From: Rhodothermales bacterium
Lineage (GTDB): Bacteria; Bacteroidota; Rhodothermia; Rhodothermales; VXPQ01
NCBI GenBank assembly: GCA_040904565.1
Contig: JBBDTI010000031.1
Coordinates: forward strand, 83,831-147,830
Length of the DNA stretch: 64,000 bases
Direction of reading: 5' to 3'
The notes under the pieces are model-generated. The model did not search any database. It was not told the DNA's origin and worked only from the letters and a program-made list of their open reading frames with translations. Position numbers and translations under genes: made by a program. Positions 43,933 through 44,241 of this stretch are shown here, in pieces. The first letter of the stretch is position 1; every line of letters starts with the position of its first letter.

Positions 43933-44241
43933 CTAATTATGCTCGGATCCGTCAGATCCACCACCGTTGTCGCCATCAAGACCACTCTTGTTGTGTTCAG
44001 AGCCGTCGCTGCCGCCGCCGTTATCGCCTTTATTATGTTCGGATCCGTCGCTTCCCCCGCCGTTGTCTGTCGCATTGTGCTCGGAGCCATCACTTCCGCC
44101 GCCGTTGTCACCACCCGCATATGCTTCGATAGACGGTCCGCTAAGCGTGTCCGCGGCACATCCTGTTAGAATCGTACTGGCGCCTGCTACGAGCGCGAGG
44201 GACATGAATGCTGAGAGAATGGCCTGTGTAAGTCGTTTCAT
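43933..44241 (-). CDS. Small lipoprotein/prepeptide with four copies of DNGGGSDGSEHN (candidate multi-core signal peptide precursor)
   Basis: AGGAG 5 nt before the ATG. Signal peptide MKRLTQAILSAFMSLALVAGASTILTGC (lipobox Cys28). Repeats differ only at synonymous positions in this frame. Confidence 0.85.
   Translation of the reverse strand: MKRLTQAILSAFMSLALVAGASTILTGCAADTLSGPSIEAYAGGDNGGGSDGSEHNATDNGGGSDGSEHNKGDNGGGSDGSEHNKSGLDGDNGGGSDGSEHN
43936..44109 (-). repeat. Four imperfect 36-nt coding repeats (44074-44109, 44032-44067, 43990-44025, 43936-43971)
   Basis: Read directly from the sequence. Periods are 42, 42 and 54 nt, and all four encode DNGGGSDGSEHN. Confidence 0.95.

Follow-up and report, generated by a model that had tools for sequence, protein, structure and literature searches.

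Accessory envelope proteins of two-component sensors include NlpE and CpxP, which act with CpxA, ZraP, which acts with ZraS, and RcsF, which acts with the Rcs system; cpxP and zraP are divergent from their kinase operons, and the DegP/HtrA protease belongs to the same circuit. These accessory proteins adopt a fold and are not known to contain identical peptides in tandem. Oligosaccharides are the ligands of the Reg_prop/Y_Y_Y hybrid two-component sensors of Bacteroides, which also possess receiver and AraC domains, and this β-propeller sensor class is so far known for glycan binding. Tandem identical peptides occur in the yeast α-factor precursor MF-alpha-1, which has dibasic KR processing sites and whose receptor is a G-protein-coupled receptor, and in polyubiquitin, the units of which are kept protein-identical by purifying selection, with synonymous differences and occasional homogenisation, and are invariant across species. 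Among small bacterial lipoproteins, NedA has a signal peptidase II (SPII) signal and a repeated EGKCG motif, in which the cysteine is converted into a copper-binding heterocycle by the adjacent MNIO NedB/NedC (MNIO, an oxidative enzyme that depends on multinuclear non-haem iron; PMC13056109). Here we report a computational analysis of a gene for a predicted lipoprotein of 102 residues, P0001, on contig JBBDTI010000031.1 of a Rhodothermales bacterium (assembly GCA_040904565.1); the window is the whole stretch of 64,000 nucleotides (nt) at positions 83,831 to 147,830 of that contig. P0001 carries four copies of the unit DNGGGSDGSEHN that are identical as peptides and diverged in their codons, it belongs to a family in which the copies change together, and its gene is divergent from that of an orphan sensor histidine kinase.

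P0001 resembles CpxP, NlpE, ZraP and RcsF in its small size, in a predicted location in the periplasm or on a lipid anchor and in having a sensor kinase gene next to its own, but has no sequence or domain relation to them. The kinase in the window has the same type of periplasmic sensor domain as the Bacteroides hybrid sensors (Protein Data Bank 4a2l, 3ott and 3v9f), but it has neither a receiver nor an AraC domain and is paired with a peptide-repeat lipoprotein. With the α-factor precursor, P0001 shares a signal peptide, tandem identical peptides, short spacers and a C-terminal last copy; in both, the copies are protein-identical but codon-different, and the peptide is species-specific. By contrast, the spacers of P0001 are irregular (AT, KG and KSGLDG; Y in the related genus g68), the repeats belong to a predicted lipoprotein, and a histidine kinase takes the place of candidate receptor. 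The likeness to polyubiquitin concerns the evolutionary pattern only, and differs in that the units of the P0001 family vary between species and alleles. NedA and the oxazolin-type DAG-RiPPs (RiPP, ribosomally synthesised and post-translationally modified peptide) are, like P0001, small proteins with an SPII signal and several short Gly-containing motifs. P0001 differs in having no Cys after the lipobox and no EGKCG motif, no MNIO near its gene or in its genome, and a sensor kinase as the constant neighbour, and the units of its family are 6–21 residues long and end in HN. We class P0001 as a putative partner of a two-component sensor, either an accessory protein of the envelope or a peptide ligand, with an unusual evolutionary signature.

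The reading frame of P0001 is fixed by the third-position-only variation among the repeats, and its orthologs all start with MK(R/K/T)... at an ATG matching that of P0001. The N-terminus reads MKRLTQAILSAFMSLALVAGASTILTGC and contains a basic n-region (MKR), a hydrophobic core and the lipobox LTGC at residues 25–28, the features of an SPII signal as judged on pattern; P0001 thus reads as an SPII lipoprotein with predicted lipidation. The mature protein has 75 residues, and a short linker separates its N-terminus from the first of the four DNGGGSDGSEHN units, which are built from G, S, D, E, H and N and hold a single His each. Re-reading of the open reading frame (ORF) bore out the preliminary description of this stretch as regards the protein-identical cores with the codons that it had listed, the spacers AT, KG and KSGLDG between them, and the position of the last core at the stop codon. 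The Protein Atlas model of P0001 is disordered (predicted local distance difference test (pLDDT) of 0.52); the best feature score from this resource was 0.78, below the useful level, and its structure matches were disordered look-alikes. The Pfam and NCBIfam models, including those for CpxP/Spy/ZraP, NlpE and RcsF, gave 0 families for P0001 and two relatives. An antisense ORF at 43967–44332 on the forward strand was rejected as a coding candidate, as the repeat variation hits its first and second codon positions.

The codons of the four units reveal selection on the exact peptide. Of the 36 nucleotide columns, 13 vary; apart from a serine switch between AGY and TCT, these are third positions (11 of 12), and pairs of units differ at 6–12 of 36 nt. 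The preliminary description had held that every difference between the repeats is synonymous, the serine switch included, and indeed none of the 13 variable sites replaces a residue. Only 20.8% of random single-base changes in a DNGGGSDGSEHN unit would be synonymous, and the units are separated by a minimum of 14 substitutions, all of them silent (P = 2.9e-10). Summed over all pairs of units, codons differ in 40 of 72 comparisons, and independent draws from local codon usage would give 44.8 ± 4.1. Because the two are indistinguishable, the synonymous sites are saturated, with no DNA homogenisation for a long time. Furthermore, the core GGGSDGSEHN is identical in all eight copies found in the P0001 gene and in its metagenome relative L109, which is 69% identical overall to P0001, and the codons match at 1–7 of 10 positions, mismatching both within and between the two genes. 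These observations support the view that the DNGGGSDGSEHN copies are old duplicates kept identical by purifying selection on the peptide, and, as the codons read, in the P0001 gene only selection can explain the identity of the copies. The earlier proposal of old duplications under purifying selection, as opposed to recent slippage or a generic linker, is thus upheld by at least 14 silent changes and saturated codons.

The pattern is exceptional within the genome. Among 42,455 open segments of 50–300 residues in six frames, scored for exact peptide repeats of at least eight residues, the P0001 ORF and its antisense shadow rank first in nucleotide divergence between the repeats. The whole-genome search for further ORFs of this kind, which the preliminary description had suggested, found no second one. 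We also considered selection merely for codon dissimilarity, and dropped it on the grounds that DNA-identical units are tolerated in L114, L018 and L112.

A protein search with P0001 found two homologs, P0002, with four copies of GDGADGSDHNNG, and P0003, with four copies of GGGSDGSEHNE. Matches to P0001 were present in 21 of 285 species genomes of the same order, including all seven of genus g68. The relatives share the signal peptide, the lipobox and a mature start with the consensus G-C-S-A-D-x-L-T-G-P, and C28, G35 and P36 are invariant in an alignment of 19 sequences (Cys in 19/19); the family start motif, C-x-x-D-x-L-x-G-P, is present in P0001. We sampled the family more widely with a profile of the N-terminus alone, leaving the tail out of the query. 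Across 401 genomes of the phylum, matches better than 1e-5 fell only inside one order. Among 1.84 billion cluster representatives, the profile found 47 proteins, of which 46 are 38–125 residues long; exact tandem repeats of at least five residues occur in 20 of these 46 small proteins, and 40 of the 46 have a tail with one or more HN or RN motifs.

The hallmark of the family is a Gly/Ser/Thr/Asp-rich stretch of about 6–20 residues that ends in His-Asn and is present from one to at least nine times. Examples of tails in relatives are four copies of NGDGESGADHNNG, two of GGGTGGGGSDHNNND, seven of GADGHN, five of GGKHESRNENGA and seven of DGTNQGS, and those of g68 have two copies of GGNNGGGSTTIGGDHNN, with six variants within the genus. 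The His is replaced by Arg, giving RN units, in L085, L086, L089 and L098, and units without His also occur (DGTNQGS and SDGGNE, in L018 and L108). The preliminary description had taken the free ...SEHN end of P0001 as a hint that cleavage after Asn defines the mature unit, a suggestion that the relatives do not support: their last unit ends in ...HNE, ...HNNG, ...HNN, ...HNTY or ...HNTD, and many members have four to six acidic residues after the last HN (...HNTSPED), so that conservation extends up to and including HN.

On these sequence features, P0001 represents a new family of kinase-linked HN-repeat predicted lipoproteins, restricted to one bacterial order and without a Pfam or NCBIfam model. 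We propose to define it by an SPII signal, the start C-x-x-D-x-(L/I)-x-G-P, one or more (H/R)N-terminated units in the tail, a length below about 180 residues, and a gene adjacent to and divergent from that of a non-hybrid Reg_prop/Y_Y_Y histidine kinase of about 1,050–1,130 residues, all of which are found in the window. A search for longer homologs yielded no fused forms of the family, although this is weak evidence. Full-text searches, which covered the main texts of papers, returned no description of the family or of any repeat lipoprotein that partners a Reg_prop/Y_Y_Y kinase. Even should its function be metal binding or that of a modified peptide, an unannotated family spread through an order merits a family model.

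Several variants accompany the typical members. In family f24, the kinase-adjacent gene has no lipobox Cys (L096, G130:C38; L101, G122:C262) and still encodes a secreted protein of small size in which one unit occurs twice in identical form (this unit being GGNGSGTTDHEPERDVLD, or GGNGSGSGGTGPSGDTND with I/L-V after it); the arrangement in repeats thus persists without a lipid anchor. A Cys pair follows soon after a single HN or YN motif in L071, L079, L091 and L165 and in P0026, P0031 and P0048, as in ...GDHNNDCSVDPTDC and ...GDHNSDCSVGDC, and such tails may be a disulfide-closed or otherwise modified variant. Two tandem small lipoprotein genes lie beside one kinase in G091:C285 (L013, L023), G092:C21 (L173) and G096:C11, the copies being of the single-motif type (...GGDSHGENEPRNL). 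In addition, Lys is frequent directly after the units (HN-KG, HN-KS, HNE-K, HNTY-KA, HNTD-KA, HNLD-K), rare inside them and absent from the g68 spacers (Y, YS, YGS); the post-unit Lys may mark a processing site in some lineages.

Within a protein of this family the units are almost always identical, and between species and alleles they differ. In an automatic scan of 33 genes, one row of which (L096) was taken from the wrong frame, 31 had exact peptide repeats with synonymous differences, at 162 variable sites in total, and the divergence of units within a gene of the relatives is synonymous only, affecting 2% to 24% of positions. One clade of ten proteins has nine different units. Its two 15-mers ending in HN are identical at 15 of 15 positions in eight of the ten proteins, and at 13 and 14 in the others; copy 1 and copy 2 taken from different proteins agree at an average of 11.6 of 15. 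Three proteins of this clade have an identical N-terminus of 41 residues and different units (H, NT or DT; A or P), with both copies changed each time. Two of these alleles are represented in DNA by the metagenome contigs L110 and L111, which match at 100% for about 390 nt upstream and about 90 nt downstream, whereas the part that encodes the units is 70–77% identical. In this one DNA pair, the tail is thus a hypervariable cassette, and the surrounding sequence is the same. No cassette could be discerned in the identity profiles of the window against L109 and of L112 against L113, owing to too much divergence or uniformity. In run X1, a lower-depth contig from a related organism of the same metagenome aligns to both flanks at about 86% identity and has, instead of the lipoprotein gene region (43822–44245), 436 letters that do not align at 80%; in run X3, no metagenome contig covers 43960–44254.

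The g68 genes do not all follow one pattern. The copies are nearly DNA-identical (9–10 of 11 codons) in three species, which points to recent homogenisation. In three other species of the genus, each copy retains its own synonymous signature: orthologous copies share 7 of 11 and 9 of 11 codons, and paralogous copies 3 of 11; a Gly/Ala replacement, an Asn/Ser replacement and a one-codon deletion are each present in both copies. This suggests parallel fixation or very short conversion tracts, in about three events. Both occasional DNA homogenisation and selection at the peptide level thus act in the family. If the kinase-ligand proposal made below holds, the locus would also be a clear natural instance in which selection holds tandem peptide copies identical as their codons randomise, all of them switching together between alleles.

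The gene pairs with that of the kinase across the order. The kinase comprises a signal-like N-terminus, a periplasmic Reg_prop/Y_Y_Y domain of about 730 residues, a transmembrane segment at about residues 757–775, and HisKA and HATPase_c domains; Pfam detected no receiver domain in its 1,074 residues. The Y_Y_Y part matches the sensor domains in 4a2l, 3ott and 3v9f, over residues 658–755 only. Coordinates place the lipoprotein gene divergently next to the kinase in at least 15 of the 21 genomes with a P0001 match, the remainder lying on contig ends. We also inspected the regions upstream of 40 further kinase orthologs without a P0001 match; 38 were long enough, and 30 of these contain a divergent gene of the family, including two of the f24 non-lipobox variants with two identical units. 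Upstream of distant, mostly longer kinase paralogs, a family gene was found in only 4 of 18 usable cases. Furthermore, the kinase is present in 48 of 49 genomes with an N-terminal profile match (1e-5), as compared with 164 of 285 genomes overall; four of the 49 matches (in G097, G154, G223 and G241) lie in long frames or are partial and are probably false. The 12 genomes of genus g8 (87–100% complete) have neither the lipoprotein nor the kinase, and in both of the g8 genomes inspected (G277 and G281) the glycosyltransferase (GT4) and thioredoxin-like neighbours are retained.

The surroundings of the pair differ on its two sides. Next to the lipoprotein the genes are variable, with GT4 present in 4 of 12 distant loci, and beyond the kinase 9 of the 12 have genes for an acyltransferase and an HtrA/DegP-type protease and aroC. 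At G046:C144 and G174:C1 the kinase and lipoprotein genes stand by themselves, with the usual neighbours absent, and G046 has two such pairs with different units; these bare two-gene loci imply that lipoprotein and kinase behave as a module. In the window, the genes at 47969–51670 and 51779–53862, downstream of the kinase, encode a PlsC-type acyltransferase, an HtrA/DegP-like PDZ protease, AroC, a stand-alone receiver and a receiver-PAS-kinase, and there is a 4-nt overlap between aroC and the protease gene. A candidate for accepting phosphate from the orphan kinase is the stand-alone receiver.

We tentatively favour an explanation, quite possible if short of probable, in which the repeat motif serves the neighbouring kinase as its cognate, multivalent peptide, acting on the periplasmic sensor domain as a ligand or modulator. 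P0001 would be a small, intrinsically disordered protein, anchored by its Cys in the periplasm or on an envelope membrane, the tail of which presents several copies (four in P0001) of one short linear motif ending in His-Asn. The motif would contact the β-propeller (Reg_prop/Y_Y_Y) domain of the divergent kinase, either while tethered or after proteolytic release, and motif and receptor would drift jointly between lineages. Since every copy would have to fit the same kinase site, selection would keep the copies identical, and the units would be specific to a lineage or allele; the two-gene module would be accounted for as well. The topology permits such contact, as the sensor domain lies between the signal-like N-terminus and the transmembrane segment and the partner is a lipoprotein. 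A complex prediction with kinase residues 23–755 and the mature lipoprotein (residues 29–102) gave a score of 0.01, which speaks neither for nor against binding. As the kinase stands in a conserved block with an HtrA/DegP-type protease, the two genes may supply the input to a pathway that monitors the envelope, much as NlpE or CpxP act on CpxA, with DegP in the circuit. If this explanation holds, the locus encodes a new two-component input module, formed by a multivalent, lineage-specific peptide and a β-propeller sensor.

Several points weigh against a ligand for the kinase, or limit its support. The copies in L010, L021 and L114 are nearly DNA-identical, with one or two variable sites, so DNA-level homogenisation also contributes to copy identity, and many members carry a single HN motif or two that differ, which shows that the family can function without identical copies. 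The cassette result comes from one DNA pair and three protein alleles. No such gene was seen at 8 of the 38 orthologous kinase loci, and the co-occurrence counts are descriptive and overstate the support, as kin are not independent. Moreover, HtrA and AroC also follow the kinase in 9 of 12 distant loci; the adjacency is therefore partly ordinary synteny, and gene order alone proves no functional pair. Physical binding, the direction of regulation, processing and output are what we infer.

The preliminary description had offered two alternatives, a RiPP precursor and a metal-binding lipoprotein, which are still live rivals, each with evidence against it; it had not recognised that the gene belongs to a family, that the copies change in concert from species to species and allele to allele, or that a sensor kinase is the constant neighbour. 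A disordered lipoprotein that binds Cu, Ni or Zn, with a kinase that merely regulates P0001 or is unrelated to it, is an unlikely but not negligible explanation. Each unit's His, together with adjacent Asp/Glu/Asn and the preceding Gly amides, would chelate one ion, as in prion octarepeats and His-rich buffers, which would suit the unit composition of G, S, D, E, H and N with a single His, and the motif in 40 of 46 family representatives (a count that includes RN). NedA, the closest described architecture, is a copper binder after MNIO modification (PMC13056109). Nevertheless, chelation needs neither letter-identical copies nor joint switching between alleles, and the conserved neighbourhood contains no metal transporter or metal-responsive regulator. 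Moreover, some members have Arg for His or no His, and a motif recognised by a protein therefore fits better than a His-based metal site. We consider it distinctly unlikely that P0001 is a multi-core precursor of a secreted or lipid-anchored modified peptide (DAG-RiPP-like), with maturases encoded elsewhere and a kinase that is coincidental or senses the product. An SPII signal followed by tandem identical cores, the last at the C-terminus, would provide several copies of a product, and the Lys common in spacers after the units (KG and KS in P0001, K in L109, KA in L005 and P0009) could mark processing, although the g68 spacers (Y, YS, YGS) contain no basic residue. RiPP–lipoprotein hybrids with repeated motifs do exist (PMC13056109). 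However, the 64-kb window and the conserved block encode no MNIO, radical SAM, YcaO or ATP-grasp enzyme with a leader-binding partner, PF05114 was not found in the P0001 genome (94.9% complete), the units have no Cys, and many members have one motif or two unlike motifs.

A repeat protein of the surface or envelope that simply evolves fast, as a spacer, brush, antigenic layer or phage decoy, turning over by slippage and recombination and having no specific partner, would agree with the copy numbers of 2 to at least 9, the DNA-identical units in L114 and L018, the cassette hypervariable between near-identical contigs and the predicted disorder of P0001. We give it a low probability: saturated silent divergence with zero replacements in the P0001 gene and L109 is unlike slippage turnover, diversifying selection on a surface would not keep the copies mutually identical, and the kinase pairing stays unexplained. 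The boldest reading, a rather improbable one, is a pherotype-like peptide–receptor system in a Gram-negative lineage, in which P0001 would be a multi-copy precursor, and its identical HN peptides would be released or displayed on the surface or on vesicles and sensed by the β-propeller of the kinase. Both partners would then diversify together into alleles private to each other, and genomes alike in all else would maintain them as a hypervariable cassette.

Some other ideas about the motif were dropped. RTX (GGXGXDXUX) and EF-hand (DxDxDG) calcium loops had no Pfam match, and by eye the hydrophobic position and the ligand spacing are missing. An N-x-S/T sequon after HN is inconsistent across the members, the Bacteroidetes O-glycosylation motif D-(S/T)-(A/I/L/V/M/T) in C-x-x-D-T-L is not kept in g68, which has D-A-L, and intein-like His-Asn cyclisation was discarded in view of the missing Hint fold.

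The features of the locus are collected in Table 1. Sigma-70-like matches number 2 in the region, as compared with 0.6 expected from shuffled sequences. The 166-nt 3′ region of the P0001 gene folds with −65.1 kcal/mol (z = −3.86); a terminator scan of the region 3′ of the gene found none by its own criteria, and the two hairpins there suggest the end of a monocistronic transcript.

Table 1. Features of the P0001–kinase locus, in window coordinates.
Feature	Position	Strand	Remark
Coding sequence of the 102-residue repeat lipoprotein P0001	43933..44241	−	ATG at 44241; TAG at 43935-43933 included
Signal peptide and lipobox L-T-G-C, residues 1-28 (predicted)	44158..44241	−	Cys28 codon 44160-44158; by pattern
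Mature N-terminus C-A-A-D-T-L-S-G-P, residues 28-36, family signature	44134..44160	−	19-sequence alignment
Unit 1, DNGGGSDGSEHN, residues 45-56	44074..44109	−	
Unit 2, DNGGGSDGSEHN, residues 59-70	44032..44067	−	Preceded by spacer AT, 44073-44068
Unit 3, DNGGGSDGSEHN, residues 73-84	43990..44025	−	Preceded by spacer KG, 44031-44026
Unit 4, DNGGGSDGSEHN, residues 91-102	43936..43971	−	Preceded by spacer KSGLDG, 43989-43972; TAG directly after
Shine-Dalgarno-like AGGAG, 5 nt ahead of the ATG	44247..44251	−	Read from sequence
Sigma-70-like promoter match TTGACT-17-TATCTT	44283..44311	−	Consensus match only
14-bp GC-rich hairpin 3′ of the P0001 stop	43790..43818	−	Folding of the 166-nt 3′ region
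Weaker hairpin, then UUAUUU	43856-43882	−	
Orphan sensor histidine kinase, 1,074 residues	44531..47755	+	Pfam; divergent from the P0001 gene

Elsewhere in the window, the genes at 4795–10374 encode an extracytoplasmic function sigma factor, a FecR-like anti-sigma factor, a SusC-like TonB-dependent receptor with CarboxypepD_reg and a DUF4249 protein, and such clusters for signalling across the envelope are typical of Bacteroidota. The genes at 16983–18686 and 23677–24432 encode BshC and a BshB-like deacetylase of the PIG-L family, which suggests bacillithiol synthesis, and a KaiC-like ATPase is encoded at 24529–26067. Small coiled-coil paralogs with a C-terminal membrane anchor, encoded in the same genome (G000:C40 near 37977 and 38711, and G000:C14 near 27658), have degenerate repeats of the IAETRADLS and DALRAELRAGH type and are unrelated to P0001.

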